A stretch of DNA of 64,000 nt from Raillietiella orientalis (GCA_036172245.1 JAYWIR010000113.1:1-64000), one strand, 5' to 3'. Positions 3,901 through 59,200 are shown, numbered from the stretch's first letter. Numbers and translations are program-made. The notes: generated by a model from the letters alone, not told the origin.

Positions 3901-5052
3901 CAGCTACGGAGGGTGGCTGCGATGGCAAGGAAAAATCAAGGATGGATCACCTGTCTCCCCGCGAACGGTAGTGCCTGGTTGCAGTAAACCGTTCGTACGT
4001 GGGAGCAGTTCGGCATGCAACGCTATCAACAGGAACGAAGGTTCCTGTTTGGGGGTTACAGAAGTTGCACGCTCCGCGAGATCCTGGGGGATCCTAAGAA
4101 GAGAGCGTGGTCAGGAAGAACCCCCCTCGCTGCTGCGCTATACTCCCTAGTGGAACATCAGGACAGCGATGTAGCGGCGAAGTGGGAGATTACAATAAAA
4201 ATCTCCGGGAAGGGAAGAAGCCTAGAGAGTGGAAGACAAGCCAGATAACTGATGCTGCGACCCCGAGTACGCCTCCTAATGGACTTCTGCGCTGGGGAGC
4301 GCTGCTGGATGTTCCGATTGAACATCTGAAGTGCCCCTGATTCTTATGAACACTTCCATCCTCCCCCTAAAATGGCAAGAGTCGGCATTCCTGTTGCAGC
4401 ACTGGGGACTCCCCTGCAACGCCCGTCGACATCACTGGACCTGGGGAGCGGTGGATCCCAATTGTGTAAGGTGCGGGGAAAGGGAGTGCCTCCCCCATCT
4501 CCTAGTGGATTGTGTTGCCCTTCGGCCCATTTGGTTCCGCTTTGCTGCGGCCATCGGTATCCATTGCAGGAATCCCAGGGACGCTCTAAAAGCCTTCTTC
4601 GTTGCCGACGCCCTGCGGCCAGCGTCTTCGATAGCAGCCTTGTGCTGCCTTCGTGGGATCGTCGCCGCCTGGAGCACGGCGACGGGAGGATCTAGCGATC
4701 AGCAAACCATCCAGTGCTCCTCCGAATTCCTGAGAAGGGCGTCGCGATGGCCCCACCTGTATGTTCACAATAAACAAGAGCTTGCCAGCATCCTGAGAGG
4801 GATGATGCGGCCCTAGAAGCAACAGTGATTCCTTCCCGTTCCCTCCCACCCTTTGTTTTTTTTTTTTTTTTTTAGTTTTTTTTGTTTTTCCCCTTTCCCT
4901 TGCTGCCTTGATGGACGGTACCGGTATAGAAACCGGTGAATTGGCAGACGCCGTGGTTCTTAGCTTCTGGCTGGAGCATTGCCACAGCCATTAATAATTT
5001 GTTTACAAAGTTTATTTTTTTATTAAACGACTCGGAGAAATCCAGGTGAAAA
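975..5052 (+). mobile_element. Family alpha retrotransposon, 3' part (ORF1 C-terminus, EN-RT-zf, 3' UTR)
   Basis: ORF1 tail, TAGTG junction at 1355-1359, GDFN, NNWRPITIVNAD, DFRKAFD, RHGDSLSP, YTDD, CVRCGERECLPHLLVDC; ends attaaacgactcggagaaatccaggtgaaaa. Confidence 0.9.
1357..4816 (+). pseudogene. ORF2 (APE endonuclease-reverse transcriptase-zinc finger), disrupted
   Basis: Pieces in ORFs 1673-1924, 1864-2523, 2569-3468 and 4331-4816, separated by stops and frameshifts. Confidence 0.9.
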
Positions 5053-6750
5053 TCGAATGCTTTCCGCAAGTCGATTGCGACCGCAAGGGCTTCCTCCCCC
5101 ACCCGACCATCCGACCCCTTGCTGGCGCACGCACCGGAATTCCGACTGCGCACGAAGCTCCTTTCATTTTGGAGCTCTATCCAGGTAGAAGCGTGGAACA
5201 GGTTCGCCTCCATGCTTCGCCCGGGAACAGCATATGTCTGTTCCGGGCTGATGAAGATGTTGGCAACCCGTCCCAACCGCTCTGCCCAAACGTTAGCCAG
5301 CAACTTTTCGTCCGAATTCACTATTCTGATGGGACCCCAGTTGTTCATGCTCCTCAGATCTCCTCCCTTTGGGAAGAGACGCACCTTTGCCGAACGAAAC
5401 GAGGCGGTAACGTCACTTGTTTCCCGTATCAGCAAGGTGAGTTGCTTTACCAGGGTAGTAAGCTCAGCCGCGAAAGTTTGATGAATCTCCGCGGGTAGGC
5501 CGTCCTTTTTTGGAGCCTGGCGCCTCTTCAGCTTTCCGATGGCCGAGAGGATCTCGTCCATCGTGAAAGGCTCGTCGAGGGTCTTTCTCTGCTCCTCCCC
5601 GATGGCTGGAGCGCCTTTCGGAAGCAGGAGTCGTAAGACGTTCCTCTCCGGAGGTGCAATGGCATACAGGGAAAAGTAGTAACTCCGCAGCAGGTCTCGG
5701 ATTTGGCCCTACCCTGGCCCTGATCGTCCAGCAAGCTGGCTTATGCGGACTGCCAGGCTCTCCTCTCGACTCTTGCTTTGTATTCCGCCAGCCTGCGGAT
5801 GTCGGTGGTCCTGACGTAACGACGGGCCTGCAGATAGGCTCGTTCGTTACGGACCGCGGTCCCAAAACCCGTAGGTAGGCGGTGCAGAGGGAACTGGTCG
5901 CAGAACTCCTGGACCGGCCGCTTAAAGCGGTCCCAATCCTCGAGTGTCCGCAGCCTGAAGCTCCTTATGAACGTGCGGAGATGTTCTGCCGCGTCCGAGA
6001 GCTTCCGCCAGTCCCCTAGGAGACGACACGCTGACGAGGGGGGGCCACTTTCGCGCGGATGGATCTCGAGGTCTAGCGGGCGATGGTCGGACAGCTCGCA
6101 CGGTAACTTTCCGCGCCTGGCCACGCGAGGGCACAGGTTCTCGTAAAGAAACACGTGGTCAATGCTGTCTTCCATCCCCGGTGCACTGACCAACAAATTA
6201 CAGGGGTGCACCGCCATGCACACCTTGTTGACCAGGTCACATTCGGGATTCTCCCCATCTGGATTCAGGCGAACGTTGAAATCTCCTGTAACCAGATGGG
6301 CATTCCGCACGCGTGCTTCGGTCAGCCAGTCTCGGCGGAGGGCAAGGAAAAACTCCTTCCTCGCGCTCCTGGTCATCAGGTCCGCGCCGTTCGGTGCGTA
6401 CACGTTCGTGACGATCAGATCGATCGAGTCGGACCACCTGAGAATCAGCTCGCAGACACGACCGTGATCGTCGAACCGCACGTCAGGAGCTGCGGAATCG
6501 ACGGCTGGTCGAAGCAGGTAGACGACACCGCAACTTTTCGCTCTCCCACACCTGTACCATAGCCGCCCTCCGTAGATCCATTCGATCTCTTGCGCTTGTT
6601 CTGCAGAGCTCACGTGGGTCTCCTGCAGCAGCGCAAGGTCGTAGGACTCCAGAAAGGCGGCCATGTCTCGTCTCCTGCCGGCGTCTGTCATGCCGTTCAC
6701 GTTCCAAACGGCGATGCGCAGACGACGGCGGGAGGAGATTCCCGGATATA
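5053..6750 (-). pseudogene. ORF2 endonuclease and N-terminal RT, truncated
   Basis: ORFs 5741-6700 and 4872-5561 carry EN and RT motifs. Confidence 0.88.
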
Positions 6751-8382
6751 CTGCTGGGAAGAATAAGGTGTTGGGGAGCCCGCCTCTTGCGAGGTGGGCG
6801 GGATGTCCATGGGGGTTTCGGCCTTCTCAGGCACCTGAGGCACCCGTTCGGCCTCCACCCCCTCCATCCCCTCCGTGTCCCTGCGTGGGAGTCTCTCGGG
6901 CGACAGCTCCAGAGAGTTTCCCACGCTCATGGCACCCTCGCTTGCGGAAGCCATCTCTTCCCCTTCGACGGGGGAGACGAGCTTCCTTGGCTTTGTGGAC
7001 TTATGTCCAGCCTTCTTGCGCGGTGCCGTGGAAACCGAGGCTGCGCTTCCGGCCTCCACCTCGGGGTCGGAAGTGAGGGAATTCTGAGGGGAGGCCGGAC
7101 GCCTTACGGCCTTCTTGCCAGCCTTGGAGGGTTCTGGCTGCAGAGAAGCTGCCAGCTCCTCCGCGGCTCGCGCGAAGGCGACGTCATCGATGGTGGTGTC
7201 GATGACGGACGCCGCCGCCGGCTCGCTCCCCTCGCTGTTGACTGTGTCAACAGAGGGGAGGTCGTCGGTAGCGGCGAGTTCTTTCCGGCAGCGTTCGGCA
7301 ACATCGAGAACCCGTTCGACAACGACGCTGCACTCTTTAATTATCGCGCTACCCTGCTCTTTCTTCTTCTGTTGGTAGGCGATTTTCTTTTCCATCCTCC
7401 TCTCCTTCTTTGATTTTTTGGCCGTTGCCACTTGCCACCCAGTCTCCTGGCCGGCTCCCTCAACTTTTTCGGCGTTGGTCGCCGGGGTCTCGGGTGCGGC
7501 CTGGGTCTTGGGCGCGGGTGGCACAGCCTTCGCGGCAGCTTTCGCCGCCAGCCTTTTCTGCAGAAGCCGGGCGCGTTTTTTAAGGTTTCTCTTGGAAACC
7601 ACCCGCACTGCTGCTTTAGGGCACACCTCCTTCGTGTGTCCCATGGTTCTGCATACTTGTCACTGCACATTGGGACACCTCTTTTTGAGGTGGCCTGAGG
7701 TATTGCAGAAGCTGCAGTATTTCGGCTTCCCCACATACCAGAGGTCGACGGTTCCGCCTTCGACCACCAGTTTGTGGGGAAGAGTGCAGTCCTTCCGAAC
7801 GGTCACGCGCGCAGCAGTGAGGTCGTGTTGCAGCTCCGTGTAGTCCTCGGAAAAACTAACTTTCGTCCACTGCGCGTGGACCGTTCCAAATTGTTCTAGC
7901 GAGGCGCGAAGCTGTTCCTTGCGCATCCGCGCGGTGACACCTAACAGGTGGACCACCATGCTGCGGTCCGCCGGAATAGGGAGGAGCCTGCGCATCCCCA
8001 TCACCACGGGGGTTTTAAGCAGTCGTTGGGCCAGCTTTGCTTGTTTGCAGATGACCTCAACGTACTGACCCCCGCTGTGGATGGTGATAGCGCTGAGCTC
8101 CTCGTCTTTCACATCGAGAGCTCGCATGCCCTTCGAGAACGCGCACTCGCTCTCTAAAGAATATAAATTGCTTACCTTGTATAACAATGAGGGTTTGTAC
8201 CCCTCCTCTACATAGATAGACAATTCCGCCGCGGCTGCAGGCGATGGCGCCGACACAACGGCGCTGCACGCCCGCGCTGCAGCGGGGACCGATTCTGTGG
8301 GGGCGGATGCTTCCACCTCCATCGCCTCTGGGGACGACGTTGCCGCTGCCCCCTGTCCATCCCTGGTGGTCGCGTCAAGCAT
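6750..8382 (-). pseudogene. ORF1 gag-like nucleic-acid-binding protein with CCHC zinc knuckles
   Basis: ORFs 7660-8631 and 6697-7644 joined by a frameshift near 7660; ATG at 8382 (MLDATTRD); two CX2CX4HX4C knuckles. Confidence 0.85.
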
Positions 8383-8475
8383 TGCTGCCTGATCGACCAC
8401 CGAACCACACGATGTTAGCACTAGGGGAGACTTCCTGGCACGAGGAGCACCGAGAAAACACGTCCACCCTAGAGC

Positions 8476-8557
8476 GCACAAGGCGTTCGACAGCGTCAAC
8501 GAGAATCTCCTGCTGGAGCTTCCTGAATGCTTGGACTTCCCGTCTTCATTAGTGGCC
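8476..8557 (+). mobile_element. Short RT fragment starting at HKAFD (host flank of the alpha element)
   Basis: Translates HKAFDSVNENLLLELPECLDFPSSLVA; similar to 9381-9457. Confidence 0.8.
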
Positions 8558-8774
8558 TTGGAAAAGGGAGCGTTTGTTCTCTCCTCCGTGGTGCAGTTTT
8601 CCCTACTTGCGTGTATTAAGGAGCGCAACAATCCTTTTCTCTTCCAATATCCACCGTGGCGTCCTCAGGCAGTCCTGCCATGAAATAACGGCGATTCATC
8701 ACTCAAAAGAACACTAAAGAAAAGCTTCGCAAACTGGTGCGGCAAAAGCGCAAAGACAACACGTTTGCACGCCT

Positions 8775-12950: not shown

Positions 12951-12959
12951 AATTATTTG

Positions 12960-14310: not shown

Positions 14311-14349
14311 CCGGCGAACCCACACAACACACGCCAACAACAAAGATAG

Positions 14350-14900
14350 CTTCCAAACGACCAGCTTGAGAAGCGATGCGCAAATACATCTGGACAGTAG
14401 GGGGTGTGGATGTCAATTGGCCTTGCTGCGGGGGAAGAAAAACCTTTCTCTACCTGCTCATGGACTCTGTCGCTATCCACTCAATTGGGAATGGACAATG
14501 GTCGTTCCTTGACTTTCCGGCTGACGACCCAAAAAACATTTTCGTTCGCCTCCTGATGCGGGACGCCTCGTCAGCAGCCGCATGTGTAGGAGTTTTCTCC
14601 TGCATAATCAGAATCCTGGACAAATGGAATGAGTCGATGAGAGGCTGCAACATCCGGAGAGCCATTCACTGAACAGCTATCTGAGTGGATAAAGATTCCC
14701 AATGGTGCCAGTTACGAACTTTACGTCCAGCACTTCTACGCATCCATATCCGGATGCGGAAAAGCACACGCTGCGAGCAGTGATTTCTTTTGTTTCTACT
14801 TCTCCTTGGAAAACATCGCCTTTTTTTCTTGTTTTTGTTTATTCATTTTTGAGGTTTTCCCTCTACATAGCCAACGAAGATGACCTCATCGTTCTGCCTG
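14350..14900 (+). mobile_element. Degenerate ORF2 C-terminus and 3' UTR remnant
   Basis: WT.GGVD..CCG....YLLMDSVAI resembles the zf region of other copies; followed by a T-rich tract. Confidence 0.55.
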
Positions 14901-27503: not shown

Positions 27504-27717
27504 TCCCTTCTCCTCCCCACAAACTCTTTTGGTTTTTTTTTCATATCCTAATTTTTCTTTTTGTTTTCATCCCCATCCCCCTCCACTGCGGAGGAGCGTC
27601 ACGCCGGGCTGCCCCCGGCACCCCTGCAGGTCCTGTGTTGTGTGGCCGTTAGTGGGGCCTCGTACCACGTTCTGTAGAGTTTTGAAAATAAACGCACCGG
27701 GCGTACCCGGGTGGAAA

Positions 27718-39600: not shown

Positions 39601-39646
39601 TGACCGAGACCTTAAAAAGGTCCCAATCAGCGAGATTTCGGAGCGT
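36616..39646 (-). mobile_element. Family beta element, 3' part (linker, RT, zf, 3' UTR)
   Basis: KAPGEDG, DLHKAF, YADD, zf ORF 36862-37329; ends aataaacgtcccgccgcaaccgggtgaaaa. Confidence 0.88.
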
Positions 39647-42242: not shown

Positions 42243-45200
42243 GCTGCCACCCGGGTACGCCCGGTGCGTTTATTTTCAGAAACTCCTTAAAACGTGGTAC
42301 AAGGCCCCACTAACGGCCACACAACACAGGACCTGTCGGAGCGCCGGGGCCAGCCCGGCGTGACGCTCCTCCACAGTGGAAGGGGATGGGGATGAAAACA
42401 AAAACAAAAATAAGGATGAGAAAAAAAAACCAAAAGAGTTTGTGGGGAGGACAAGGGATCACATTCCAATGGGAGGAGAGCCCATCCTTCGCAAGATGCT
42501 CTCCAGGTCCCTCTTCATGCTTCGCAGATGAGGCCATGTCGCAGCTTTCCGCATGAAGCAGACCGTATACGGGATGACATCCCTCGCGTTGGCATCCACT
42601 CCTTCGTCGCGAATGTCGCTCCAGGCCGCCACGATGCCCCGGATGCAGCGGCGGTCTCCGAGGGGTGCGGCGGGCTGGAGAGCGTTCCGCACGAAGAGGG
42701 ACTGAAGAACGTCTCTGTGCGCGGCGCTTATTGGGAGGACGAGGGTCGTCATGAGCCGTTCCCACAGGGTTCGGAGGGCAGCACAGTCAACAAGTAGGTG
42801 TGGGAGCGATTCCCGCTCTCCACACCTTGCACACTAAAGCCTTACACTTTTCCGCGTCCAGTGGAAGCGGCGCACGTTGCAGGGTACACCCCAGTGCAAC
42901 AGCAGCAGCGCCGACAGTTGCCACATCAGGGGGAGAAGCCTGGATCCGATTAATATTGGGAGCCACTTCAGGTTAACCGTCGGGATGTCGAGCAGCTCGC
43001 CCCATCAACGAAGTCCGAGCGGGAGAACACTCGAAGTCGTGGCGTCTACCAGTTCTCCCATGGTCCAACCGCTCCTCTTCTTTTCCTTGCCTGCGATTCG
43101 GCAGGAGACTTGCCACTTTGTCTTGCAACCGCTGATTAGTGCCCTTCGTAGGAAGAGCAGGGTCGAAGCTAGAGGGGTAGTCTCCGCCCACGTGCTCCTG
43201 GAGGGACACTCTAGAGTAGTCCGCAATGTGCAGCAGGCGTTGGGGCGGAATCGTGGGCGGTTCCAGTCCGGGGAAGTCTGGAGGTTCGGCTTGGCCCACG
43301 TCGCAACGGCTTTTTCCATTTAAGCGGAGGAGTTGGCAAGGCTGCATACCGTCGAGCCGTTGTCTCTCACCATTGCTTCCATGCGCCCAAGGAAAAGGCC
43401 GCATCTTCTGAGCTTCCTGCCAGAGCACAGATGGTACGACGCGAGTCCTTGCGTCCTGGACACACGGCTGGCGAAGATGCGGGCCGGAACGCACCAAGGG
43501 GTGCTCTATGACTTTGCTGCGATAGGGAGGGTGCGCCATCACAGCTGTATGTCCAGGCGCTCCAGCGTCATGAGGCCGAGACCGCCGTCCCGACGAGGAT
43601 CACATAAGTCATCTTGAGGCACAGGTGGCCCTTTTCGCAGCCCAAGTGTCCATTCCCAACGCAGCTGGCGGCTTCAAAGTGGGATTGCCAATCTATCCGT
43701 TAGTGTTGTTTAGACAGCGCTTCACATGGAAGCATTTGCTCGCGAAGAACAAGTTGAAATCCATACTTCGCACGGGAACAGCGTATGTGTGGTCCGGGCT
43801 AATTATGGAGTCTGCCACCTGTCATAGTCGCAAAGCCCACAGTCCAGCGATCAGCGTGGCGTTCGTATTTACAATTGTGATCGGACGCCAGTTGCCTAGG
43901 AATCTTAGGTCTCCTCCCTTCGGGAGGAGCCTCACACGGGCTGACCGAAACGAGGCGGGTAGGTTGCCTTCGTCTCGGATCAGCCCGGCAAACTGACGCA
44001 CCAGAGGGGCAAGCTCTGTCGCGAAGCTTCGAAAAAATTCTTCAGGCAGGCCGTCCTCCCCTGGCGCCTTACGACTCTTGAGCCTTTTAATACCGGCGAG
44101 AATTTCCATGGTAGAAAAAGGCTCGTCGAGGCTGATCCTCTCCTCCTCCTTTATTGCCCTGGCTCCGTCCGGAAGCAGGCGCCGCGATGCGTCCCGCTTT
44201 GGGGTTGCCCTAACGTAGTGGGAGGAATAATAATGCCGCACGAGGTGCCTGATCGCGGGTGGCGCCGTTCGCTTTCAGCCCTGGTCGTCCAGCAAGCTGG
44301 CCGACCCGGATTTTCAGGCTTGGCGCTCGGCCCCGGCTCGATATTCTGCCGGGCGACGGACATTGGGGGTCCTCTCGTAACGGAGGGCCTGTAAATAGGC
44401 CATATGATTCCGAGCTTCTTCCCAAAATTCGGGTGGTAGGCGGTGCAGGGGGAACTCCTCGCAGAACTCACGGACCGAGGCCTTGAAGAGGTCCCAATCT
44501 GTGTGACTGCGGAGGGAGACGCCTCTCAGGAATTCGCGAAGGTGCTTCTTCGCACCTGAGAGCCGCGTCCAGTCCCCAGGCAGCCGCCACGCCGTGGACG
44601 GGGGTCCTTTGTGGCTTCGGCAATCCTCGGCGATTATCCTGGAATGGTCCGACAGCGTCGACGCAACTTTCCCCCGTTTGCGGACCCGTGAGCACAGGTC
44701 GGAACCAGGAAGAAGTGGTCGATGCTGCGGTACATTCTTCCGCGTCCGCCAACAAGTTGCGCTTGCGCATGGCAGCGCACATCTCCTTGACCGTGCGTTC
44801 CTGTGCTTCGGGCTCACCTGGCAGCAGACGTAGATTAAAGTCTCCAGCTATCAGGTGTGCCTTCCGCGTATTCGTGTCGGCCAGCAAATCGCTCTCCAGG
44901 GTCTCCAGCAACCTGTTACGGTCGCTGTATCCCCCTTTACCGCTTAAGGCATACACGTTCTTGACGATCATTTCGATCGAGTCGGACCAGCTGAGATTCA
45001 GCTGACCGACCCAACCGGCGTCATCAAAGCGTACGCCCTTCAAGGCAGCGTCGATAGCCGGCTTCACGAAAAACGCGACCCCACAGGTGTTGCGAACGCC
45101 GCATCGCCAATACAGTCGACCTCCCGCGATCGTTTCGATCCCCTGGACGTCTGCCGAGGTGATCACGTGGATCTCCTGCAGCAGGGCCAGGTCGAACTCA

Positions 45201-47274
45201 CGCAGGGTGTCGGCCGTATCTCGTTTGTTGCCGTCGTCGCGCAGCCCGTTGACGTTGCAACTGGCCACGCGGATTCGAAGGCGACAGGCGAGCCCAGGTG
45301 CTATTCCTGAGAAATGGGCTCTGCAACGTCCGCCACCTGTTGAGGCGGGACGTTAGGTGGAGTAGGAGGGACAGGTGCCTCGAGCACCTGGTCCCCCTCC
45401 TCCATCGGTGAAGGCGCGTCGGGCGGGTCACCCTCAGGTGGGGTCTCGCCTTCCTGTTGACCCTCCTCCATAGGGGTGGGCTGTGCAGGATCCGCGACGG
45501 CAAGGGGGACTTGTTTCCCTTGCTATCCCTCCTCTATGGAGGTGGCCGGTTCGACGGCTTTTGAGCGTGGGAATCCCGGAGGGAGAACTCCCGGATTCCC
45601 ACGCTGCAGCTTCCTTCCGGCTTCTCCTCCTCGCTGGTGGAGAAAAGGCTCCTCCTGGGTTTCTGGGACTTGCTCCCCGACTTCCCCGTTGGTGCCTCCG
45701 AGGAAAAGGATGCACTTCCGGCCCCCAGGTCGCCCTTACCTGCGGGGGCCTTCTTCGTCGGTGCCGGCCTGAGTACGCCCTTGCGCGACAGAGTTTCGCG
45801 TTCGGAGAGCGTTGTAGCGATCTCCTCCGCCGCTTTTCCCAACGCGGCGTCTTCGCCAGCGGCGACCGTTGCCGCGGGCTGCTCCACGACCTGATCGAGC
45901 GCGGCGTCATCACTGACGGACAACGTATTGCGGGCTCCTCCGCTACTTTATCGAGCGCGGCGTCCTGGCTGTCGGCGCAAGAGTCTCGCGTCTCACCCTC
46001 TAAACGTAGATTGCGCTCGTCTACGCGAGTATCCAGCGCGTCCGCATCAGCTGTTCTGTGAACATTGCCCCGGGCGGCCTCAGCAAGAACTGCTAAGCGT
46101 TTTAATGCCACCGAGCATTCGCGGAGTTGTTTTTTTGAAAGCGGCGCGGCTTTTTTCTTTTTGCCTGCAGTTTTCTTCTCCGACTTTTCTTCAGCCATCA
46201 TTTTGATTTTTTCTTTTCTGGCCTGAACGAGCTGCCAACCCTCCTCCAATCCCGCGTCCACGGGAGCTCTTTGCTCCTACGCCTGTGCGGGAGGAAGGGA
46301 GGCTGGCAGTTGGGAACGGCCATTTTCGCGAACTGGTCTTTCTACCAGCTTTCCACGTTTTCACTGCGCCTTTTTAGCGGCAGTGGGCACCGGGCTGGGG
46401 CTTTTGGGGCACAAGGACCGAACGTGACACTTTTCTCCGCATAGGTGGCACACAATGTTCGGGCACCTTTTTCGTAGATGACCAACTGCATTGCAGTAGC
46501 CTCAAAATTATGGTTGCCCCACGCACCAGAGATCCAACGCTTCTTGGTAGACCTCCAGCTTGTGGGGAAGCGCACCACTCTCTTTTCCGGTGACTCGTGC
46601 CGCAGCTTGACCCCCGAAAAGGCTATTGTATCCTTGGAAAATCGTGGGCTTTGGCCAAAACGCGTGCACTTCTGCGTGCTTCCGCCACTGATCACCAACC
46701 GTTGACCTAATCATGCGACTGGAGATCCCAGTGAGATGGAACACTACCGAGCTGTCCATCGTCATCGGCAAGATCTTCCGACCATCAACGATCAGCGGGC
46801 CGGTCATCATGCGTTGGGCCAAGGTGATATCTTTGCATAGCACCTCGACTCGCTGCCCGACGCTGAGGACGAAAAGGCCGTCAAGATCTTGTAAGAAGGT
46901 ATTGGCGTTCTGCAGCGCCTTCGTGAAGGCGCGTGAAGTTCGCCCATCGAAAAGGTTGCCTATCTTATAGACTAGCGAGGGTTTATACCTTGCTTTCTTG
47001 AAGGCTCCCATCTCGGTAATGGCTTCAACCCTAGGCGAGGCCACCATGGCGCTCCATGACCTCAGCTTCGCCGAAGATGATTCCGGGGCCGATTCACCTG
47101 ATCCAGTGGGCTGTGGGGACAAACAAGCATCCCCTACGCCTACTTCCATCGCGGTGTCCTCTGGCAACTCGGCCATAGGACGCCGACGGTGTGAACGCAC
47201 AAACCACTCAAGGAAAAACCACTGCCCTTGCCGCGCAGCCGGAGCGCAGGAAAAGCACGTACTCTCTCCACAAA
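42243..47274 (-). mobile_element. Family gamma element with internal deletion of the RT core near 43620
   Basis: ORF1 46508-47293; EN 44468-45268; NWRPI; the KAFD-YADD segment is missing; 3' hairpin at 42247-42274. Confidence 0.9.
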
Positions 47275-47284
47275 GGGGATTTTG

Positions 47285-50228
47285 TTTTGCCACCTGGGTA
47301 CGCCCGAAGCGTTTATAAATAAATCTCTACAATTGCAGTACCAGGTCCCGCTCGCGGCCTTATGCACGGGACCTACCGGGACACCGGGATGATGCCAGGC
47401 GTGGCACTCCCCGGCAGCGAAAGAGGATGGGGAAAAAAAAAAAAGAAAAAAAAGAAGTAAAAATAAAAACACAAACAAACAAAAGAGGTTGGAAGGCATG
47501 GAAGGGATCACTGTTCACTGATAGTGAAGCCCATCCGTTGAAGGAAGCCCTCGAGGTCCATCCGTCTATTCTTTAGTTGGGGCCATCCAGCAGCTCTCCG
47601 CAAGAAGCGTTGGGCATATGGGATGACATCCCTCGCGTGTTGACCCACTCCTTCCTTGTTGGTGTCGCTCCATGCCGCCACAATGCCTCGGACGCAGGAC
47701 AAGGCTGCAAGGGCTGCGGCTGGCTGAAGGGCGTCATTCACGAAGAGGGGTCGAAGAACGTCTTTAGGGGAACTGCCCGTAGGTTGACCGAGGGTCGTCC
47801 CAAATCGTTCCCAAAGGGGACGGAGGGCAGCACAGTACACAATAAGGTGAGAGAGCGATTACCGCTCTCCGCACCTGACACACACAGAATCCACAACTCC
47901 TCCTGTCCAGTGTTAGCGGCGTGCGTTGCAGGGTACACCCCAATACAACAACAGCAACGCCGACTCTTTCCACTCCAGGGGCAGGATCCTGGATTCCTGA
48001 ATAAGCGGGTGATACTTCAGCACATCCGTAGGGATGGCCAGCAGCTCGCCATATCTTCTCAGTCAACGAGGCTGAACCCTCGGGGTCGTGGCGTCCGCGA
48101 GTTGACCCATGGTCCAGCCGCTCATTCTCTTCTCCCGTCCCTCGATGCAGCAGAAGACTTGCCACCTTGGAGTCCGACTGCTGTAAAGCGAACTCCTCAG
48201 GAAAGGCAGCTCCGTAGCCAGGAAGTTTGTCTCTGTCCACGTGCTTCTAGCTGGATTCTCCAGGAGATTCCTCAGTGCAGCGAGCGTAGGGGCGCATCGG
48301 AGACGATTCCACGTTACGTGGCTTCTCTGGTTCACCAATGCTCACGTTCCAATATTTTCCTCCAGCCAGGCGGGAGAGTTGGCGGGGCAGCAAACCATCC
48401 AGCTGTTCTCCATGGCCAACGATGCCATGCGCCCGAGCTGTAGGCCAGCACTTCTGATCTTCCGGCCCGGGCACAGAAGAAAAGAAGCGAGTCCCTCGCA
48501 CCGGGACACACGACTGGCGAGGAATCGAGCCGGAATGCATCACGGGGTGCTCGACATCTTCGATGCGATGGCGAGGGTACGCCATCGCAAAAGTTTCTTC
48601 ACGCGCTTCAGCGTCAGGAGGTAAGTTCACCGTCACGACGAGGAACGCAAACGTCCTTCAAAAAGAATCCGGACCTCCCCTAGCCCCAAAGGGCGATGCG
48701 CAGGAGGTCCTTCGTCCTCTTTTTAACTACTCCTGGAGCAAGGCAAACAAAAAGCATGGGGCGGAGAATGGGAACCGCAAAGGCGTTCCAAACCGCGGCC
48801 CGTTCCCGCAAGTGAAACTTGCCTTCCAGGAACATGCCGATCGCCGTCTCGACTTTTTGGAGGCAGCTGGACCACGCTTCTGCACGGTAGATGTCCTTCA
48901 ACGGAACACCAAGTTACCTGAAGCACCTCGCCGTGGGAATCCCCAAACGGGCACAGTCTTTCTGCCCTGCCCAGACCGCTCCAACTGGCACCACCGACGA
49001 CTTCACCCTGTTAAACTGTAATCCGGCCCCACGGCTAAGCAGGTCGAAGAAATCTCCGACCGCCTTCGCCAAGGTGGACATAGGTAAGAGAAGCAGAAGA
49101 TCGTCGGCATACGCCGCTACAGCTGGCGTGCCGAAACACGAGCTCGGCTAGGGGGTTAAATTAACCCTGTGCGCTCTCAGCACAAACTAAGCGTAGGTGC
49201 TAAAGGGCAGGGGGCTGAGGCTGTCGCCCTTTCTTATGCCACGCCGCACCGGCACGCCATACACCTTTTGACCACTGAAAGTAATCGAGATTATCTCGTT
49301 CCTCCAGCAAGAGTGCAGGTAGGTAATCAAGGAGGGTAGGAAGCCCATGCGACCCAGGAGCTCCAAGAGGTGTTCCTAGTCAAAACATTGGAATGCCCTA
49401 TGGAGGTCGACTGCATTCGCTAAGGCCCCCTTTCCTGCATGAGGGTCCCTACTTTGTCCCACTGACGGCCCCAAAGTTGGATTGCAAATTTTCCCTTTCC
49501 CTTCTTTCTTACTCCTCTGCGTGTGCATCCATGTGCTCGCGAAGAAGAGGTTGGCCTCCATACTTCGCCCGTGAACATCGTAATTCTGCTCCGGGCTAAT
49601 TATGGAATTGGCCACCAGCCCCATATGCGAAATAAACAGTCTGGCAATTAGCTTGGCGTCCGCATTCACAATTGTGATCGGACGCCAGTTGCTGAGTTTC
49701 CTGAGGTCTCCTCCTTTCGAAAGGGGCCTCACACTGGCTGGCCGAAACGAGGTGGGTACATCGCCTTCATCTGGGTTAAGCCTTGTGAACTCAAGCACCA
49801 GGGGTGCCAACTCTGCCGCGGAGCATTGAAAAAACTCCGTGGGTAGGTCCTCCTCCCCTGTTGCTTCCCGCTTCTTGAGCTTTTTTATACCGGCGAGAAT
49901 TTCGCCGGGGGTAAAAGGCTCGTCGAGGCTTCTTTTCTCCTTCTCTTCTATTACCGATGCACCGTCCGGAAGCAAGCGCCGGGAAGTATCCTGGTCCCGG
50001 GGCGACCTGGCGTAAAGAGAAAAATAATAACGCCGCACGAGGTGACGTATTCTAGCCGCAGCGGAGTGCTCTCGGCCCTGGTCATCCAGCAAGCTTCCCG
50101 ACTTGGATTGCCAGGCTTGAGGTTCGGCCCCAACTCGGTACTGTGCCAGGCGACGGACATTGGTGGTCCTGGCGTAACGACGGGCATACAAGTACGCTCG
50201 TTCGTTACGGACCACCGCGCCGCATCCC
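47285..50228 (-). mobile_element. Family delta element, 3' part (linker, RT, zf, 3' UTR)
   Basis: ORF 49376-50215 (NWRPI, DLHRAF), YADD near 49100; UTR ends ataaacgcttcgggcgtacccaggtggcaaaa. Confidence 0.88.
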
Positions 50229-52550
50229 GTGGCGAGCGGACGTGTTTTTCCTTCGCTCCCGAGTGAGTCGACAGGAAGCGGTTTTTTCTATTGTTGTTTG
50301 GTGTGGAACATCGTTGGTGTCCGATGGCAGCGATGCCTGAGGACACCACGATGGAGGTAGGTGTGGGGGAGGCTTGCCCACCCCCACAGCCTACAGAATC
50401 AGGGGCGTCCGCCCCGGAATCGCCCTCGCCGCTCAAGGCGAGGAGCTGGAGCGCCATGGTGGCCGCGCCGAGCGCGGAAACCATGGCCGAGATGGCAGCC
50501 TACCGGGCAGCTGGGTACAAGCCCAGCTTGGTATACCAGGTAGGCAATCTCTTTGACGGGCGAACTGCACGCGCTTTTTCGAAGTCGCTGCAGAACGGCA
50601 ACGTGTTAGAAAAGGATCTTGACGGTCTATCCGTGCTCAGCGGGGGTCAGCGCGTCGAGGTTGTCTGCAAGGACATCACCTTGGCGCAAAGCTTGATTAC
50701 CACCCCGCTGAACGTGGACGGACGCAAGATCCTACCAGTCACGATGGACCGCTCCGTAGTGGTACATCTGACTGGCATCACCAGCCGCATGACGCGGTCT
50801 GCGGTTGCGGATCAGATGAAAAAATACAGAGAAGTCCACGCGTTATGGCCTAGGGCCACAATCTCCGATGGCTACGATAGCCTTTCCGGAGGGAAGGCCT
50901 TCCCGCGTGTGACGGTGAAGAAGGATAGTGGGCTTCCCCACAAACTAGAGGTCAATGACGGAGTCGTAGAACTCTGGTACGTGGGGAAGACATGCTTTTC
51001 TGGCTAATGAAATGCAGTAGGCCATCTGCGCATGCGGTGCCCGAACATTGTGTGCCACTTATGCGGGGAGAAGAGCCACGTGCGCCGCGTATGCCCAAAA
51101 CGCCCCACCCCGGTGCCGCCTGTCGCAAAGAAAGCGCAGGCAAAACACGGAAAATTGTTCGAAAAACCAAAGAGAGATACTGGCCGGCAGCAGCCGCTAG
51201 CCCCGGTTTCTCCAACACAGGCGTCGAAAGAAAAACTACCGAAGACGTGGGAGTCCAGGAGAGCTGGCGGCTGGTTAAGGGCAGGAAGGAGAGAAAGGTG
51301 CCCCTCGCGGAACCCGCGAAAGCGGTAAAAAGGACAGCAGGCAAGGCGAAAAAACCTGGGCCGCGCGCCAAGTCCATGCGGGAATATACGTTGGCACTGG
51401 AACGCATAGCCGTTCCCGAGACTGCCAGCCGGAGAGACGAGCCTCCCCTCGCCGTTTCCGCCGCGCCCGAGGTTTGCGACGGCGAACCCTCTGTTTACAC
51501 ACAGGGTGAGCCGCGCGGAATAGCGACGGTCGAATTCGAGGACGCCGCGTTGGTGCAGGCGGCGGTGGAGCTCGCGGCCACTCTGGCCAAGCGTGAGTTC
51601 CCCTCGCGCAAGGCCGTGCAAAGGCCGGCTCCCGCGAAAAAGGCCCCTACAGATAAATTGGACCTGAAGGCCGGAAGCACAACCTCCTCCTCGGAAGCAC
51701 CTCCCTAGAAGTCAAGACGCAAGTACTAGAAGCCCAGAAGGCGCCCCCTCTCCACCAGCAAGGACTACAAGCAGGAAGGTAGCGGTAGCGTGGGAATCCC
51801 GGAAGGGGAACTCCCACGCTCGGAAGCCGTCGAGCCGGCCACCTCCATGGAGGAGGGTGAGCAGGGGGGCGAAGTCCTCCCTGCAGTCGCCGAGCCTGAA
51901 CAGCCCGCCCCCATAGAGGAGGGCCAACAGGTAGGCGCGACCCCACCTCAGGATTACGCGCTCGAAGCGCTCTTACCCATGGAGAAGGGGGACCAGGTGC
52001 ACGCAGCGCCTGACCCTCCTCCTCCACCTAGCGTCCCGCCCCAACAGGTGGCGGACGCCGCATCGCCATCTTCCCAGGAGTAACACCTGGGCTCGCCAGT
52101 CGCCGTCGGATTCGCGCCGCCTGTTGGAACGTCAACGGGCTGCGCAACGACGGTAACAGGCGAGATACGGCCGACACCCTGCGGGAGTTCGACCTGGCCC
52201 TTTTGCAGGAGATCCACGTGATCACCGCGGCGGACGTCCAGGAGATCGAAACGATCGCGGGGGATCGGCTGTACTGGCGATGCGGCCTCCGCAACAACTG
52301 CGGGGTCGCGTTCTTCGTGAAGCCGGCCATCGACGCTGCCGTGAAGGGCGTGCGCTTCGATGACGACTCTCGGGTCGGTCAGCTGACTCTCGGCTGGCCG
52401 ACTCGATCGATCTGATCGTCACGAATGTGTACGCCCCAACCGGTCAAAAGGGATACAGCAACCGTACCAAGCTGCTTGAATCCCTGAAGCGCGACTAACT
52501 GGCGAACACGAACGTGCGGAAGGCTCACCTGATTGTGGGAGATTTCAATC
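50229..52550 (+). mobile_element. Family gamma element, 5' part, cut at endonuclease GDFN
   Basis: ggacgtg at 50238; ORF1 ATG 50324 to TAA 52083; CWNVNG, LQEIH, IVGDFN. Confidence 0.88.
50238..50249 (+). promoter_or_regulatory. Putative internal promoter motif GGACGTGTTTT (DPE-like)
   Basis: Recurs within about 15 nt of the 5' end of several elements (8465 minus, 22126, 39652 decayed, about 47262 minus, 52557). Confidence 0.55.
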
Positions 52551-55500
52551 GAGTGAGGACGTGTTTTTCAACGCTCTCGTCTCAGTGCTTTCATCCGCTT
52601 CATCTTGGCGTCGTACATTTTGACGACGATGTCGACCCAACTTGAAGCTACTGAAGTTGGAGGAAGAGCATCCGGATCTGCAATCGCGGAACCTACGGCC
52701 GCCTCCACTTCGACTTTCTCGCCAATAGAGAGGAGTTTTGCTGACGTTGCTGCCACAGCAGCCGTCAAAGGGAAACCACTCGACAAGTCGGAGTTGCGGG
52801 CATACGTAGCCCAAGGCTATAGACCTGCTCTCCGATATAAGGTGAGTGGCTTTCTTTCTGCGCGCGACGGGAATCAGTTCAACGATGAACTGACCCGTGT
52901 TGGCGTGCGGGAGGAGGACCTTCTCGCCATTATGCCCGTAAAAGACATGGGCTATTTCAAGGTACGTTGCAAAGACGCTGCACTTGTGAAACGCTTGCTG
53001 CGCACCCCGTTGTCGATCCGTGGCCAGAAGGTCTTCCCGGCCGCCATGGACGACTCATTTGTGGCGGAGATTTTCGACATCGAGTCGGAAATCTCCGATA
53101 TTGATATTCGGAACGCGTTGGCGAAATTCGCCACGGTCCATGCGCTGTGGAGGATGCGTAGCAACCTCAAGGACTTCCCGTCCATACATAGCGGAGTCGC
53201 TGGAGTCCGGCTTACAATGCCGGACCGCCGTCTGCTGCCCACGAAACTACAGGTGAAAGACACGGCCGTTCATCTGTGGTTCGTGGGCAAAGTGAGAACG
53301 TGCGAGCAATGCGGGAAGGAGGGGCATTGTTTGGATAAATGCCCCTCTGGAAAATGCCGTTTTTGCAAACTATCCGGGAACCAATTAAAAAATTGCCCGG
53401 ATCTTTTGCGAAAAAAGGCAGCCGCGGAGCTCCATTTTAAAAAACAAAGCGCGGATAAATAGAAAAAATCTGCGAAAAACCTGGAGTCCCCACGGCAGAA
53501 ATTCCGAAAAATCGCGAGGCGGAATGTCCCCCAAAGCAGCAGGAAACCTCGCACGCGAAGCCCTACGCGCCCCCTCTCGCGGCAGGGGAGCCGCAAAAGA
53601 AAGGGTGCGGGGAATCCGGGGCAATGGTAAGTCCCCCTAGGCGCAATAGCTGTCCTTCCCAAGCTCGTTTGGCTGTTTCGGAGTTCGAGCAACCGGCGGG
53701 GACGTCAATGGACAACGGCGGTAAGGACACTTCCAGTACCGTCAGATCCATTCCTTCAACTCCTGCAGTGGCTGAGAAGCCCAAATCGGGTAAGAAGGGT
53801 TGTGCCGTTTCGACTTCGAAAGTCAGCAAAAAAAAATCCGCGTCGCGATCCAACACCGCGAAAGCGGAGAAAAATCTCACGCCGTCGCAATCGGAGAGCA
53901 AGCTCTCGACTGGCGCGGATGCCATGCCAACGAAGGGATTGAAAGCCCTTCCGAAGGCAGCTTCCATGACGAGTGTGTCGAAGCCATCCAAAGTGCTCCC
54001 GTCCAAAGACGTGGATGGCTTCAAAGATGGCAATGGAGCACAATCTCCATTTACGGCGCCACGCGAATTGAGGAACCGTAATGAAGTAAAGAAGACTTCA
54101 GCAAAGGTCCCTCGTGCAACTGCGCGTGAGCACGCTGAAAACGCGCGCGCCGGGAAAGCAGCCGTCACCAAAAGCGATGCTCTGGTGACGGAAAACGAAA
54201 ACAGGACAGCTGTCAATCCAGCAGAACCTGTCACTGCTTCGCGGAAGGCCGAAACCCGATCGAACATGCGCCGGTCGGACTCCGAAATGGATGCCGTTCC
54301 GATCACCGAGACGAGGACAACTCGCTCGAAAGCGTGTGCGCGCCGATCAAAAGTAGGCAGCCAGGCAACTGTAGCCGCGAAGCCACGCGAAGTCTCCACG
54401 AAACCCGACGGGGATAAGCCTGGCGTGGAGGCATTACATGCATGCAGCACGATAGAGGAAGGTGGCGACCGTCCCCTCCAGCCAGTCGTGCTGCTCGCCG
54501 TCTGCTCGCCGGATAAAGCGAGCAAAAAGCCGCCACCTTCCCAGCAGTAATGCGGGGAATCGCGTCTTCTCGTCGTCTGTCCGTAACGTGTTGGAACGTG
54601 AACGGACTACAGAACGACGAGAAGAGGCGATTAGTAGCCAACGCCCTGCGCCCCTTCGACCTCGCGCTCCTGCAGGAGATTCACGTAATCTCCGTCGAGC
54701 AGGCAGCCGAAATCGAGGAGCGCGCAGGCGGAACGCTACATTGGCGGTGCGGCGGCGCACACACGTGCGGCGTCGCGTTTCTCGTAATAGGAAAAATGGC
54801 GGAAGCGCTGCGTAGTGTTCGTTTCGATGACGACGAACGGATAGGCCAGCTTGTCATCAAGTGGTCCGAGTCCATCGATCTCGTCGTTAAGAACGTCTAC
54901 GCGCCGAGTGGCTCTCGCTACCTCGAAGAAAGAGTAGCTTTCTTTGGTGAGGTGCAGAGCCACTGTCTCAACAACTCCGGTTTCCAAGTGGCCCACCTCG
55001 TCGCTGGGGACTTCAACGTCCGCCTGCTCTCCGACGATTGGAGCCGCCCGAGGGAGCGCGCCCTGCCCATCGAGATGTGCGCGTCCGTGCACGCCGCCAA
55101 CTTGATGGTCAGCGAACCTGGAATGGAAAGATCGCTCGATCAAGTTTTCCTCGATGAAAACCTGCATTCGCGTGTGGGTAGGAGAGGAAGATTGTTGACT
55201 AGGCTTTCTGACCACCACAGGTTGGAGTTTGAGATCCTTCCGCCAGGCAGGATACCTCCGTTGCAAAACTGCTGGATGCAGGCGGATTGGATTAGCCAAC
55301 CGGAGGATGCGGAGCATCTACGTGGATACCTCCGAGGCTTTGCCATTCAAGAACTTGCGAGCGCGATCTTGATATCAAAAGATGTGTCTGCGAGTTCTGC
55401 TGCCAATTCCCCTTGCACCGGCTTCCACGCGGTTTCGGAGAGGGCGTGGCCAACAGTAGAGACTTTCTGCAGGCCCGCACGTTTCCGAGACGCGCGGATG

Positions 55501-56269
55501 TCGGGCGTCTTGCGGAGTACAAGGATAGGGCCGATCGCCAGGTCTGGCAGTCCGGAGCAGCATGCCTGTTGGACGACAAGGGCCAGGAATGTTCGGCCCC
55601 AGCCGAAGTACGCCGCATTGTGAGACGCTACTACTCCTGGCTGTAAGCGGAATCCCCGACGGAGGATATTCTCTCTTAGATACTCCTGTCTCAGGATGCT
55701 CGTGTTGTCGGAGAGGAGGAACGCGAACGTCTCAACGAGCCCTTCACGGCGGAGGAATTTTCGTCCGCCATCGCTGGGCTAAAGACACAAAAGGCGCCAG
55801 GCGAGGATGGGCTCCCAGCAAAGTTTTATCAGTGCTTTGCAGTGAATCACATTCTGTTGATGCTGAGACTCGCGACGCTGATGAGTGAATCCAAGAATAT
55901 CCCGGATTCATTTGGCTCAGCATATGTGCGTCTCCTGCCGAAAGGCAGAGACTTGCGCCAACTTACCAACTGTAGTCCGATACCCTTGGTGAACTCGGAC
56001 AACAAGTTGTTTTCGAAGCTGTGGGTCGCGCGGTTAGGAAGTATCGTGGAATCTGTGGTGAGCCAGGAACAAACCTACGCGGTTCTGGGACGATCCATGG
56101 AAGCTAACATCCTTTTCGCGCGTACATGGATGCAGCTGCAGGAATTCGTGGCACAGCAAAGCCAGGCTGCTGCTAAAGTCACAGCCGCAGGCAAGAAAAA
56201 CAGGCGACGACAACAGGAGGGAAAGCCAGGTGCCTTGGCATTCGCTGTCGATCTCCACAAGGCGTTCGA
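52551..56269 (+). mobile_element. Family epsilon element, 5' part, cut at RT DLHKAFD
   Basis: ggacgtg at 52557; ORF1 52629-54550 with CEQCGKEGHCLDKC; TAATG junction; EN ORF 54550-55623; RT 55842-56269. Confidence 0.9.
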
Positions 56270-59200
56270 TTTTCACCCGGATTTCGCCGGGGCGTTTATT
56301 GTAAAATAAACGTTTACAGATAAGTGCGGTGGTTGGACCATTACTGCAGCCGCGCACGAAGAAACACAAAGCGTGCCGGGTCACCGGTTCGCAGACTGGC
56401 ACGGTCCACCACGGCAGCAGCAGGAAGGTGAAAAACAAAAAACAAAACAAAAAGAAAAGAAAAAACTTTGAGGGTACGGGAAGGGATCACTGTAGCTGGT
56501 GGGGCCGTTGCATCCTTTGCAGGATGCCGGCAAGCCCCTTCTGTATTCCTGGATCCAAGTGGGGCCATCGGGACGCTCTCCTCAGGATCTAAAAGGCTAA
56601 CTGGATGGCACCCAGGTCGTGTGGTCCTCTCGTAGCCTTGCTCCAGGATGCAACGATCCCGCGAAGGCAGCACAGGTCTGCTAACGAGGCCGCTGGCCGG
56701 AGGGCTTCGGCAAAGAAGAGAGCTTGCAGTAAATCCCTTGGTTTGACGCAGGGGATTTCGATGGCCGCGGCAAAGCGCAACCACAGGGGCCTGAGGGCAA
56801 CGCGATCCACTAGCAGGTGGGGGAGGGAATACCCATTCCCTACACCTGACGCAATTAGGGTTCATGGCTCCCCAGGTCCAGTGGTGTCGGCGGTCGTTCC
56901 AGGGGAGTCAACAGTGCTGCAACAGGATTGCCGATTCCTGCCATTTTGAGGGGAGGGTGCAGTTGTTCATGAGCACCGGGGTCCACTTCAGATATTAAAT
57001 GGGAACCTCGAGCGGCGCGCCCCAGCGCAGAGGTCCATTGGGAGGCGTACTCGGGGTCGAAGTGTCTGTTAGCTGGCCCGTCTTCCAGTCTCCTATCTTC
57101 TTTCCCTTTTCGGAGATTGTTACCGTAACCTCAGACTTCGCCGCAACATCGCTGTCCAGATCTTTCATCAGGGAGGGCAGCGCAGCAGCGAGGGGAGTTC
57201 TTCATGCCCACGCTCTCTTTTTTGGATCCTCCAGGATCTCGCGAAGCATGCAACTTCTGTAACCCTCAAACAGGAACCTTCGTTCCTGTTGGGAGCGTTT
57301 TTTGCCGAACTGTCGATACGTTCGAACTTTTTCCTGCAACCAGGCACTACCGTTAAAAGGGAGACAGGTGAGCAATCCTGGGCTTTTCCGGTACAGCGCA
57401 GCCACCCTCCGCAGCTGGAGTCCGCATCGGTTGACGCGGCGACGGAGTGCAAGAAACGACGTCAGTTCCTTCTTGCCTGTGGCTTGCTGGAGAAGGAGAC
57501 GTGCAGGGACGCACCAAGAGGTGCACCACAACTCTGGAACGAGTGCCGACAATCGGAACTGGAGCTGAAGCTCCAGCCGCTCCAGCCGTTCCAGCGTCAG
57601 GAGCCCAAGACCACTGTCCCGACTAGGAGCGTACAAGTCCTTTAAGCGGAATCCGGCATTGCCGTTTCCCCGAAGGGCGATACGGAGGAGGTTTTTGGTT
57701 TGCTTTTTAATTCTTTCTGTGGGGAAGCAAACAAAAAGCAGGGTTCGGAGAAGAAGAGCTGCGAACGCGTTTCAAACCACGTCCCGTTCAGGCAGGAAAA
57801 ACCTGCCTCCTCGGAACGGGCCGATCGACGTCCCTACTTTTTGGAGGCAGCCGGACCACGCTTCTGCAGGGGAGTAGTCCTCCAACGGCACACCAAGGTA
57901 ATTGAAGTACCTCACCTTGAAAATCCCCTAACGGACCCAGTCCTGCTGCCCTTCCCACGCCGCACCAACTGGCATCACGTAAGACTTCGCCCTGTTCACC
58001 GTAAGTCCGGTTTTCTGATGCAGAAAGTCGAAGAACTGCGCGACCGCCGCAGCCGGAGTGGACATAGGGAGCAGCAGCAGAAGGTCGTCCGCGTACGCTG
58101 AAACGGCTGGCGTACCGGCAAAGTCGTGCGGCAGGGGCGCCAGAGTTCTCCTGTACGCTCTCAGTGCCAACTCAAAGTAGGTACTGAAGAGCAAGGGGCT
58201 CAGGCTGTCTCCCTGCCAGATCCCACGCCGCACCGGCACACCGTGCACGGTCTGCCCTCTGAAAGTTACGTTGATGAGCGCGTCGCGCCAGCAGGAGCGC
58301 AGATAGGCCACTAATGAGGCCGGGAAGCCCAAGCGTTCCGGAAGCCCCAGAAGGAGATTCTGGTCGACGCAATCGAATGCTTTCCGCAGTTCAATTGCGA
58401 TTGCAAGGGCTCCCTTCCCCATATGACCATCCGACCCTCTGCCTGCGCACGCACCGGAATTCCAGGTTCGCACCAAACTCCTTTCTTGTTGGAGCTCTAG
58501 CCAGGTGGAAGCGTGGAACAGGTTCGCCTCCATGCTTCGCCCGTGAACAGCATATGTCTGTTACGGGCTGATGAAGATGTTGGCAACCCGTCCCAAGATC
58601 TCTGCCCAATTCTTAGCTAGCAATTTGGCGTCCGCGTTCACTATTCTGATGCGACGTAAGTAGTTCATGCTCCTCAGATCTCCTCCCTTAGGGAGGAGCC
58701 GCACCTTTGCCGAACGAAACGAGGCGGGAACGTGACCTGTTTCGCGTATCAACAAGGTGAGTTGATGTACCAGGTGGATGAGCTCAGCCGCGAAAGTTTG
58801 GTAAAACTCCGCAGGCAGGGCGTCCACATCTGGAGCCTTGCGCCTCTTAAGCTTTTTGATGGCCGAGAGGATCTCGTCCATCGTATAAGTCTCGTCGAGG
58901 GTCTTTCTCTCCTCCTCCACGATCGCTGGAGCGCCTTCAAAGAGCAGGAGACGTGAGACGTTCCTCTGCGGAGGTGCCCTGGCATACAGGGAGGAGTGGA
59001 ATTTCGCAGCAGGCCGCGGATTTGGGCAGGTGCCGAGTGCTCCTGACCCTGATCGTCCAGTAAGCTGGCCGATCCGGACTGCCAGGCTTGCCTCTCGACA
59101 CCCGCTATGTATTCCGCCAGCCTACGGATGTCGGGGGTCCTGGCGTGACGGCGAGCCTGCAGATAGGCTCGTTCGTTACGTACCTTGTCCCCAAATCCCG

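Follow-up and report, generated by a model that had tools for sequence, protein, structure and literature searches.

Can a retrotransposon home to the codons of a catalytic motif in its own relatives? This question is raised by a 64,000-nt stretch of Raillietiella orientalis DNA (GCA_036172245.1, JAYWIR010000113.1:1-64000; the whole stretch is referred to as the window). Over nearly its whole length it is a nest of mutually inserted L1-like retrotransposons of the type lacking long terminal repeats (non-LTR). For one family of this nest, alpha, the original prediction held that it inserts antisense at one base of the KAFD codons (motif A) of the reverse transcriptase (RT), and this in more than one host family. 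All three junctions are present in the sequence where they had been placed, and the claim is confirmed by coordinates, reading frames and alignment. Our favoured explanation, to which we assign a probability of about three in four, is that alpha is an L1-like family with a specific target, and that this target, entered in antisense, is the RT motif-A codons of related elements and of alpha itself. The observation as such is confirmed as real and non-random, the evidence being few old events in one window.

Three alpha ends meet the KAFD codons of other elements

Junction 1 lies between alpha copy 1 (975..5052, + strand) and a second member of the family, here called host alpha (5053..8475, - strand). 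Copy 1 carries many stops, the 3' end of element F1 interrupts it in the 5' part at 974/975, and its own 3' end ...CCAGGTGAAAA is located at 5052. Host alpha runs from its 5' end at 8475 through the first open reading frame (ORF1, ATG at 8382) and the apurinic/apyrimidinic endonuclease (APE) domain to the KAFD codons of the RT (5063-5052). There it is split by the antisense copy 1, and the rest of its 3' part lies outside the window. The junction reads ...aaatccaggtgaaaa(5052)|(5053)TCGAATGCTTTCCGCAAGTCGAT. In the frame of the - strand this gives GEEALAVAIDLRKAFD, followed by FHLDF.... The junction base of host alpha is ambiguous by up to 2 nt, because the closest relative reads GATT at this place.

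Junction 2 has the same anatomy in a host of another family. Epsilon (52551..56269, + strand) comprises a 5' motif at 52557, ORF1, APE and the RT up to KAFD (56259-56270), and is cut after ...TTCGA by alpha copy 2 (56270..59722, - strand). The 3' end of copy 2, ...CCGGGTGAAAA, is at 56270, and at ~59722 the 3' end of gamma interrupts the 5' part of this copy. The junction reads ...GTCGATCTCCACAAGGCGTTCGA(56269)|(56270)ttttcacccggatttc; the + strand frame is GALAFAVDLHKAFD, then FHPDF..., and the reverse complement is ggtgaaaa-TCGAACGCCTTGTGG.

Junction 3 involves an alpha 5' end. It reads ...ccaccctagagc(8475)|(8476)GCACAAGGCGTTCGACAGCGTC, which amounts to HKAFDSVNENLLLEL, and connects host alpha in antisense with F4 (8476..8563, + strand), an 88-nt RT remnant starting with GCACAAGGCGTTCGA (8476-8490, a putative 15-bp copy of a target site duplication, TSD). 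The alpha 5' terminus has the sequence ...GGACGTGTTTTC. Position 8475 is a genuine full-length terminus, since the 5' motif shared among the families is found ~10 nt inside (8465-8453), with the ORF1 start following at 8382. When the nucleotide sequence is aligned with four intact RTs, the RT homology begins at 8476 (+/- 2) with none before; against F5 it could start at 8474-8476. The piece at 8476 is not epsilon. The remnant is F5-like: it is 88% identical to the motif-A region of F5 (9382-9457) and 81-84% identical to the alpha copies, and has only 14 nt in common with epsilon. Two further readings of this junction were rejected. Twin priming does not apply to an inverted F4 that stems from another family and an alpha part that begins at position 1, and junctions 2 and 3 are not the two ends of one event, F4 being F5-like.

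Both alpha 3' tails stop at the same alignment column, after host ...TTCGA (host ...AAR GCR TTC GA), and the downstream host half of junction 3 begins 15 nt before that column, at GCACAAGGCGTTCGA. A target stretch would read ...AAGGCGTTCGACAGC..., and the expected 15-bp TSD would be GCAYAARGCRTTCGA-like. This offset agrees with the TSD of about 15 bp that had been implied, whereby it is pieced together from the 3' and 5' junctions of different events, no alpha copy having both ends in view. Each alpha copy shows its sole visible host junction at KAFD and always antisense to the host (3/3). Use of the same nucleotide, the mark of a target-specific LINE (long interspersed nuclear element), is thereby seen in all three alpha copies of the window. 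The junctions agree in position and orientation and are independent of one another. Moreover, nothing is missing between the 5' motif and KAFD in the two upstream hosts, host alpha and epsilon, as expected of full-length elements split by insertion.

How often is the motif left intact? Six-frame matches to [KRQ]A[FY]D were surveyed across the window. Nine were found, eight of which are RT motif A, and one (35904) lies within an APE domain. Five of the RT sites are uninterrupted (2941, 25646, 31820, 58383 and 61838). Two are upstream halves that end just after KAFD and continue with the reverse-complemented alpha tail (5063-5052 and 56259-56270), and one is a downstream half starting at HKAFD (8480). 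Three further motif-A sites, in F5, F13 and B3, are uninterrupted and mutated. Alpha junctions hence account for 3/11 RT motif-A sites. A twelfth site, that of B2, was removed by a microhomology deletion of ~755 bp.

Chance coincidence was evaluated under a null model of uniform insertion over a 5.5-kb element in two orientations. The probability that the two alpha 3' ends lie within 2 nt of each other and the alpha 5' end falls 5-25 nt upstream is P = 8.7e-7. When all 36 pairs of the window's 9 independent 3' junctions are considered, a coincidence in any of them has P = 0.016.

Putative course of integration and reading of the site

The favoured explanation implies the following course. Alpha would be an L1-like non-LTR element with CCHC knuckles in ORF1, APE and RT in ORF2, a 3' stem-loop and a short A tail, integrating by target-primed reverse transcription (TPRT) at one DNA site, ...AAR GCR TTC GA^C (KAFD). 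The first nick would open the Asp codon (GA^C) in the sense strand of the host, after TTCGA. Its 3' OH would prime cDNA synthesis on the alpha RNA, which would place alpha antisense to the host, and a second nick in the other strand ~15 nt upstream would generate the TSD of ~15 bp. We infer the nick positions, the TSD and the reading of the site as DNA sequence from the TPRT anatomy of the junctions, that is a complete 3' tail joined to a ...TTCGA-3' strand and a complete 5' untranslated region (UTR) joined to host sequence in which the last 15 nt of that strand are repeated.

The site may be read by the endonuclease, by an RNA 3' end annealing to TCGA, or by both. The strongest rival explanation goes further and holds that mainly base pairing, rather than the endonuclease, sets the site: alpha RNA ending in ...GAAAAUCGA, or a read-through RNA with the target sequence from a master copy resident in a KAFD site, would anneal to nicks or breaks with ...TCGA-3' ends. 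The preference for the site would then persist but be exerted by the RNA. All four alpha-type tails are indeed followed by TCGA (5053, 56269-56266 and 36615-36612) or GCGA (F5). TCGA is a palindrome, so that base pairing is possible between a terminal UCGA and a primer with TCGA at its end. A contribution of such pairing may exist, because the TCGA flank is retained by F13 (B-like 5' part, alpha-like 3' end) at a different position, site X, where F14 with its alpha-like APE is also found. What speaks against pairing as the sole determinant is the frequency of the short sequence. In the window, both strands counted, TCGA occurs 578 times and TCGAC 168 times, whereas AARGCRTTCGA occurs 7 times, in each case as RT motif A. 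Because of this difference a preference for 4-5 nt alone cannot explain the KAFD insertions. Four nucleotides are too few to choose KAFD in 3/3 cases, and a longer recognition is therefore needed, either by the endonuclease or by a read-through RNA carrying the target sequence; longer read-through homology is possible but unseen. We consider it unlikely, though worth keeping in mind, that the site is set mainly by pairing.

Rearrangement, regional preference and duplication

The junctions could be scars of rearrangement at the most conserved RT stretch, produced by ectopic recombination, inversion or template switching of the RT. Recombinants do exist in the nest, as the B-like part of F13 gives way to an alpha-like one ~120 nt downstream of KAFD, and microhomology deletions occur as well (B2). 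Yet an exchange between RTs in inverted orientation would leave one RT joined to another. Instead KAFD is joined to the last base of the alpha 3' tail (twice) and to the first bases of the alpha 5' UTR (once), which are hallmarks of TPRT and make scars a very improbable origin.

Slightly less credible still is a mere preference of alpha for an island of transposable elements (TEs), e.g. centromeric chromatin, with the coincidence at KAFD due to chance. The window is almost entirely L1-like, so any insertion lands in an element, and clusters of related LINEs in one region are described for Zepp and ZeppL in the accessible text of PMC8226300 and PMC3446292. But the same base and orientation recur in three different hosts, with the above probability of 8.7e-7, and paired junctions are present at two more sites, X and P, besides.

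A single insertion later copied by segmental duplication is equally hard to sustain: an inverted duplication of ~5-6 kb in the window (23400-28446 versus 45856-41515, 87-91%) does hold one junction twice, and host alpha and copy 2 are 85.5% identical, which is a similar level, but host alpha and epsilon share 57.2% identity, F4 is F5-like and not epsilon, and copy 1 within host alpha requires at least two successive events. Judged from the sequences, one duplicated event can be regarded as excluded because the three hosts differ (alpha, epsilon, F5-like). Over the 580 nt upstream of KAFD the three alpha elements are mutually 82.2-85.5% identical, and alpha shares 56-66% with epsilon, gamma and the B group. 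In the self-BLAST copy 1 is 82% identical to both copy 2 and host alpha.

Several points weigh against alpha as a target-specific family. There are three events only, all within one 64-kb window. The majority of the window's RT motif-A sites (8/11) are unoccupied. The 15-bp TSD is a composite of separate events, one end of each alpha copy being hidden. Every alpha copy is degenerate. As TCGA or GCGA follows each alpha-type tail, the last 4 nt may belong to the element or reflect annealing, whereby the junction would be displaced by 4 nt. KAFD is not the location of every alpha-type tail, as F13 sits at site X, and F14 is also found at site X in spite of an alpha-like APE (72.8% to host alpha). 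The tail of F5 adjoins the 5' end of another element with GCGAACG in between (6/7 matches to the KAFD flank). Finally, segmental duplication and recombination do occur in the nest.

The original prediction further argued that escape is difficult for the hosts and that a relative is inactivated with every insertion. Both points are conjecture, on which the unoccupied sites (8/11) and the fact that all alpha copies seen are dead have a bearing.

Antisense joins at two positions of the APE-RT linker

Is KAFD the only position at which the nest shows such joins? Two further sites in the linker between APE and RT were examined with a 90-aa query and nucleotide alignment.

Site X ('GFxLxxL') spans 36600-36620 and 39625-39660. 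F12 (35479..36615, + strand), which is epsilon-like, is cut after 'GFAIREL' (...GAGCTCGA) by the 3' end of F13 (36616..39652, - strand). F13 is a mosaic with the alpha-type tail GGTGAAAA, and its visible part starts at 'GSTLRNLADWD', which is homologous to site X. F12 and F13 overlap at this site by 15-23 nt, F12 ending at position 46 and F13 starting at position 40 of the same query. Where its visible part starts, F13 meets, in antisense, the 5' end of F14 (39653..42246, + strand), a full-length alpha-like element (ORF1 ATG at 39729). Upstream of ~38600 F13 is 80-85% identical to B3; downstream it is 76-84% identical to alpha copy 1 and 70-79% to F5. A crossover of F13 at KAFD was considered and rejected, since it lies ~120 nt downstream of these codons.

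Site P ('LPxGFG') is represented by the loci 42240-42255, 27710-27725, 47270-47295 and 50220-50240. F14 is cut there after 'LPAGFEA' by B2 (42247..47274, - strand), a full-length B-type element in antisense, and both F14 and its duplicate F10 end after 'LPAGF..' at the tails of B2 and B1, respectively. A 15-nt spacer (47275-47289) separates the 5' end of B2 from the tail of B3 (...GGTGG, ~47290); spacer and B3 together occupy 47275..50229 on the - strand. The visible part of B3 starts at '(G)AVVRNERAYL', i.e. few codons past 'LPAGF..', and meets the 5' end of B4 (~50224-50237, + strand). The spacer resembles antisense site P and fits a second insertion in a TSD copy of this site.

All pairs at sites X and P are antisense. 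The probability that at least three of five random 5' ends fall 5-25 nt upstream of a 3' site is P = 4.5e-5. These sites suggest that elements of this group share the habit of homing antisense into conserved ORF2 stretches and that the nest grows in this way. In this respect the overall interpretation of the original prediction has to be amended: the KAFD site, the antisense orientation and the independence of the events stand, while the pattern is wider than claimed, other ORF2 positions being used too. The readings of X and P are less secure than that of KAFD for several reasons. A single pair of junctions, one at a 3' end and one at a 5' end, is available per site. F10/B1 duplicates F14/B2 segmentally. 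At their 5' terminus B-type elements look like site P themselves, so that the border is uncertain by ~10 nt. As for F13, a truncation at the 5' end is conceivable in principle. The presence of F14 at site X despite its alpha-like APE means that similarity of the endonuclease does not predict the site.

Taken one step further, the TE island might be the work of a guild: several related L1-like lineages, every one with a conserved ORF2 stretch of its own (KAFD, GFxLxxL, LPxGFG) into which it homes antisense, in the other lineages as well as in itself, with a stagger of ~15 bp. Coding constraint would keep the landing pads, and the island would be a self-renewing nested body of repeats such as forms algal centromere clusters. 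We regard this extension as tentative, and somewhat more doubtful than not. Were it true, landing pads would be available across diverged families and host genes need never be touched.

The inverted segmental duplication (23400-28446 versus 45856-41515) contains a B-type element and its junction with an alpha-like host. Its homology runs left to ~22040 versus 47320, including 33 nt of the upstream B-type tail. B2 lacks ~755 bp in comparison to B1 (25621-26378), including the KAFD site, with the joint at 43621-43627. As an event related to KAFD this deletion was rejected, because it starts 35 nt upstream of the codons and is simply a deletion by GGCC microhomology. The 462-nt delta insert at F8/F7, considered as marking a fourth site, was likewise dismissed, the overlap of 46 nt being only ~65% identical and the halves belonging to different families. 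The region itself (19240-21272) consists of a 462-nt gamma-like 3' fragment (19749-20210, + strand) between two antisense epsilon-like pieces. These are 91% and 71% identical to epsilon, overlap by 46 nt at ~65% identity and do not represent a simple insertion.

Relation to known target-specific and self-nesting LINEs

Target-specific LINEs are known for ribosomal, small nuclear and transfer RNA genes, microsatellites, telomeres and one DNA transposon. Tx1L of Xenopus is a target-specific APE-type LINE of the Tx1 clade, and the DNA transposon Tx1D is its target. The likeness to alpha lies in an APE-type LINE with a defined sequence inside another TE as landing site. In contrast to alpha, the target of Tx1L is a DNA transposon and not the coding sequence of a related LINE, and neither self-targeting nor insertion antisense to an ORF is known as a Tx1L feature. 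Self-nesting LINEs (Zepp, Cnl1) are, to our knowledge, known without a defined codon-level site.

According to the accessible part of PMC4640811, specific targets of non-LTR elements include 'transposons', and APE-type specific families are found in the Tx1 and R1 clades. R1/R2 and the LINEs of ribosomal DNA and small nuclear RNA genes, as portrayed there, resemble alpha by a nucleotide-precise site in a conserved multicopy sequence, whose conservation ensures persistence. They differ in targeting RNA genes of the host, whereas the alpha target is protein-coding, being a conserved motif of elements that are themselves selfish.

Zepp and ZeppL are L1 LINEs which target existing copies and form one nested cluster per chromosome, mostly with tandem 3' ends, as far as described in the available text of Craig et al. 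2021 (PMC8226300) and Blanc et al. 2012 (PMC3446292). On that description Zepp (Chlorella/Coccomyxa) and ZeppL (Chlamydomonas) share with the present nest the insertion into existing copies and its density, and tail-to-head joints are found here too (47288, 22075 and 11477). The parts of PMC8226300, PMC3446292, PMC9940879 and PMC11005252 at hand describe tandem 3'-end arrays and report no codon-level site or antisense rule. The present nest, as compared with these partial accounts, holds several diverged families and full-length hosts split at fixed ORF2 positions. The window does hold a nested cluster and three tail-to-head joints, but the replicated junctions (KAFD, X, P) are antisense.

Cnl1 of Cryptococcus 'inserts preferentially within itself' and forms tandem nested arrays, according to the excerpted text of PMC9942834. 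It is thus similar as a self-inserting LINE with nested arrays and differs, on the same excerpts, by being tandem and near telomere repeats, whereas here the insertions are antisense and lie in RT motif-A codons. Double insertion of site-specific TEs leads to tandem dimers and was put forward for the origin of Drosophila satellites (bioRxiv 10.1101/158386, available in part). A similar event, with the second hit in the TSD copy, would explain the B3 tail located 15 nt from the B2 5' end. The case described in that part concerns Drosophila satellites and not nesting inside ORF2.

In open-access text, which may miss sites given in the primary Zepp accounts, a literature search revealed no LINE with a site in an RT codon block of other LINEs and no antisense rule. 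On comparison, the logic of alpha is best read as related to that of Tx1L, Zepp and Cnl1, the RT-codon target in relatives probably being the new part. If this is true, alpha would represent a new class of safe haven, a LINE homing to the catalytic-motif codons of other LINEs. The target would be kept constant by selection on the parasites and would be common to families, and each insertion would disable a competitor. It would also provide a testable mechanism for the growth of LINE-only islands, including the putative centromeres of several green algae, and a natural APE endonuclease with a long recognition site.

Build and relatives of the elements

The elements of the nest share their general build. 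The GC content of the window is 48-63%. Pfam domains Exo_endo_phos (APE) and RVT_1 are found on many of its reading frames, and self-BLAST reveals many copies with 70-91% identity. With a long gamma ORF2 piece, P0001 and a C-terminal piece as tblastn queries, ~20 ORF2 fragments were mapped on both strands. P0001 is a 619-aa RT from a JGI record and is 75% identical to alpha over the queried RT segment.

PF03372 matches host alpha at 5741-6826 (- strand) with E = 2.3e-14 (54.1 bits, cutoff 24.5), and likewise epsilon, gamma, B1 and F8. The RT domain (PF00078), which follows the APE domain, is recognised on copy 1 at 2524-3468 (E = 7.7e-22), and also on copy 2, gamma and P0001. A zf-RVT match was obtained on gamma alone (59980-61074) and is weak, with 23.8 bits under the cutoff of 27.5. 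CCHC-like strings are visible in the translation of alpha ORF1, which has no Pfam match there.

All families have a 3' architecture of AATAAA, a short GC stem-loop (CCCGG-N4-6-CCGGG), TG and an A run of 2-4 nt. The terminal hairpin is predicted in 6/6 folded ends, with individually weak z-scores from -0.5 to -2.6. At the 5' side the families have the motif GGACGTGTTTTYC in common, located ~85-100 nt upstream of the ORF1 start. It is present at the 5' ends of B4 (50238) and epsilon (52557) and, with 2 mismatches, of B2 (47262).

The nearest named proteins, from plants, Xenopus and Closterium, are 26-31% identical. No named relative was found in a search with the APE domain, protein searches gave no named algal relative, and the ESM Atlas yielded generic RT clusters only. 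Against a representative library the ORF across the epsilon junction has 8383 matches at E <= 0.001; among the matches listed only P0001 is close (50%), and none of the best 150 of the 8383 passes query residue 198 into the junction tail. A protein search for chimeric ORFs ending in ...KAFDFHPDF gave no candidate. P0121, with four matched stretches, turned out to be an unrelated tandem gene model. The pattern of the family-wide 3' end had one metagenome match, which was discarded as a chance match in a bacterial-looking coding stretch.

Other joins and remnants of the nest

Three sense-orientation joins were found, none of which is replicated. The F1 tail enters alpha copy 1 upstream of the APE domain (974/975), the gamma tail enters the APE domain of alpha copy 2 (59722/59723), and the 5' end of epsilon follows the 'GDFN' motif of B4 (52550/52551). 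At the tail-to-head joints (47288, 22075 and 11477) a 3' tail is followed, after 0-15 nt, by a full-length element of the same orientation, starting with its 5' end.

An isolated B-like 5' UTR with ORF1 start, Y (8564-8778, - strand), is located between the F4 remnant and the 5'-truncated F5. The joint between Y and F5 at 8778/8779 was considered as a target site and rejected for having no replicate. A distant L1-like family with 25-30% protein identity to the others occupies 30954-33440 (- strand). It has an intact TDMKKAFDTIDH motif and is without alpha insertion. The stretch 11478-19200 is of lower GC content (48-51%) and otherwise has no recognisable ORF2; ORF1-like remnants with CCHC strings are present within it at 11614-12350 (+ strand) and 13485-14093 (- strand).

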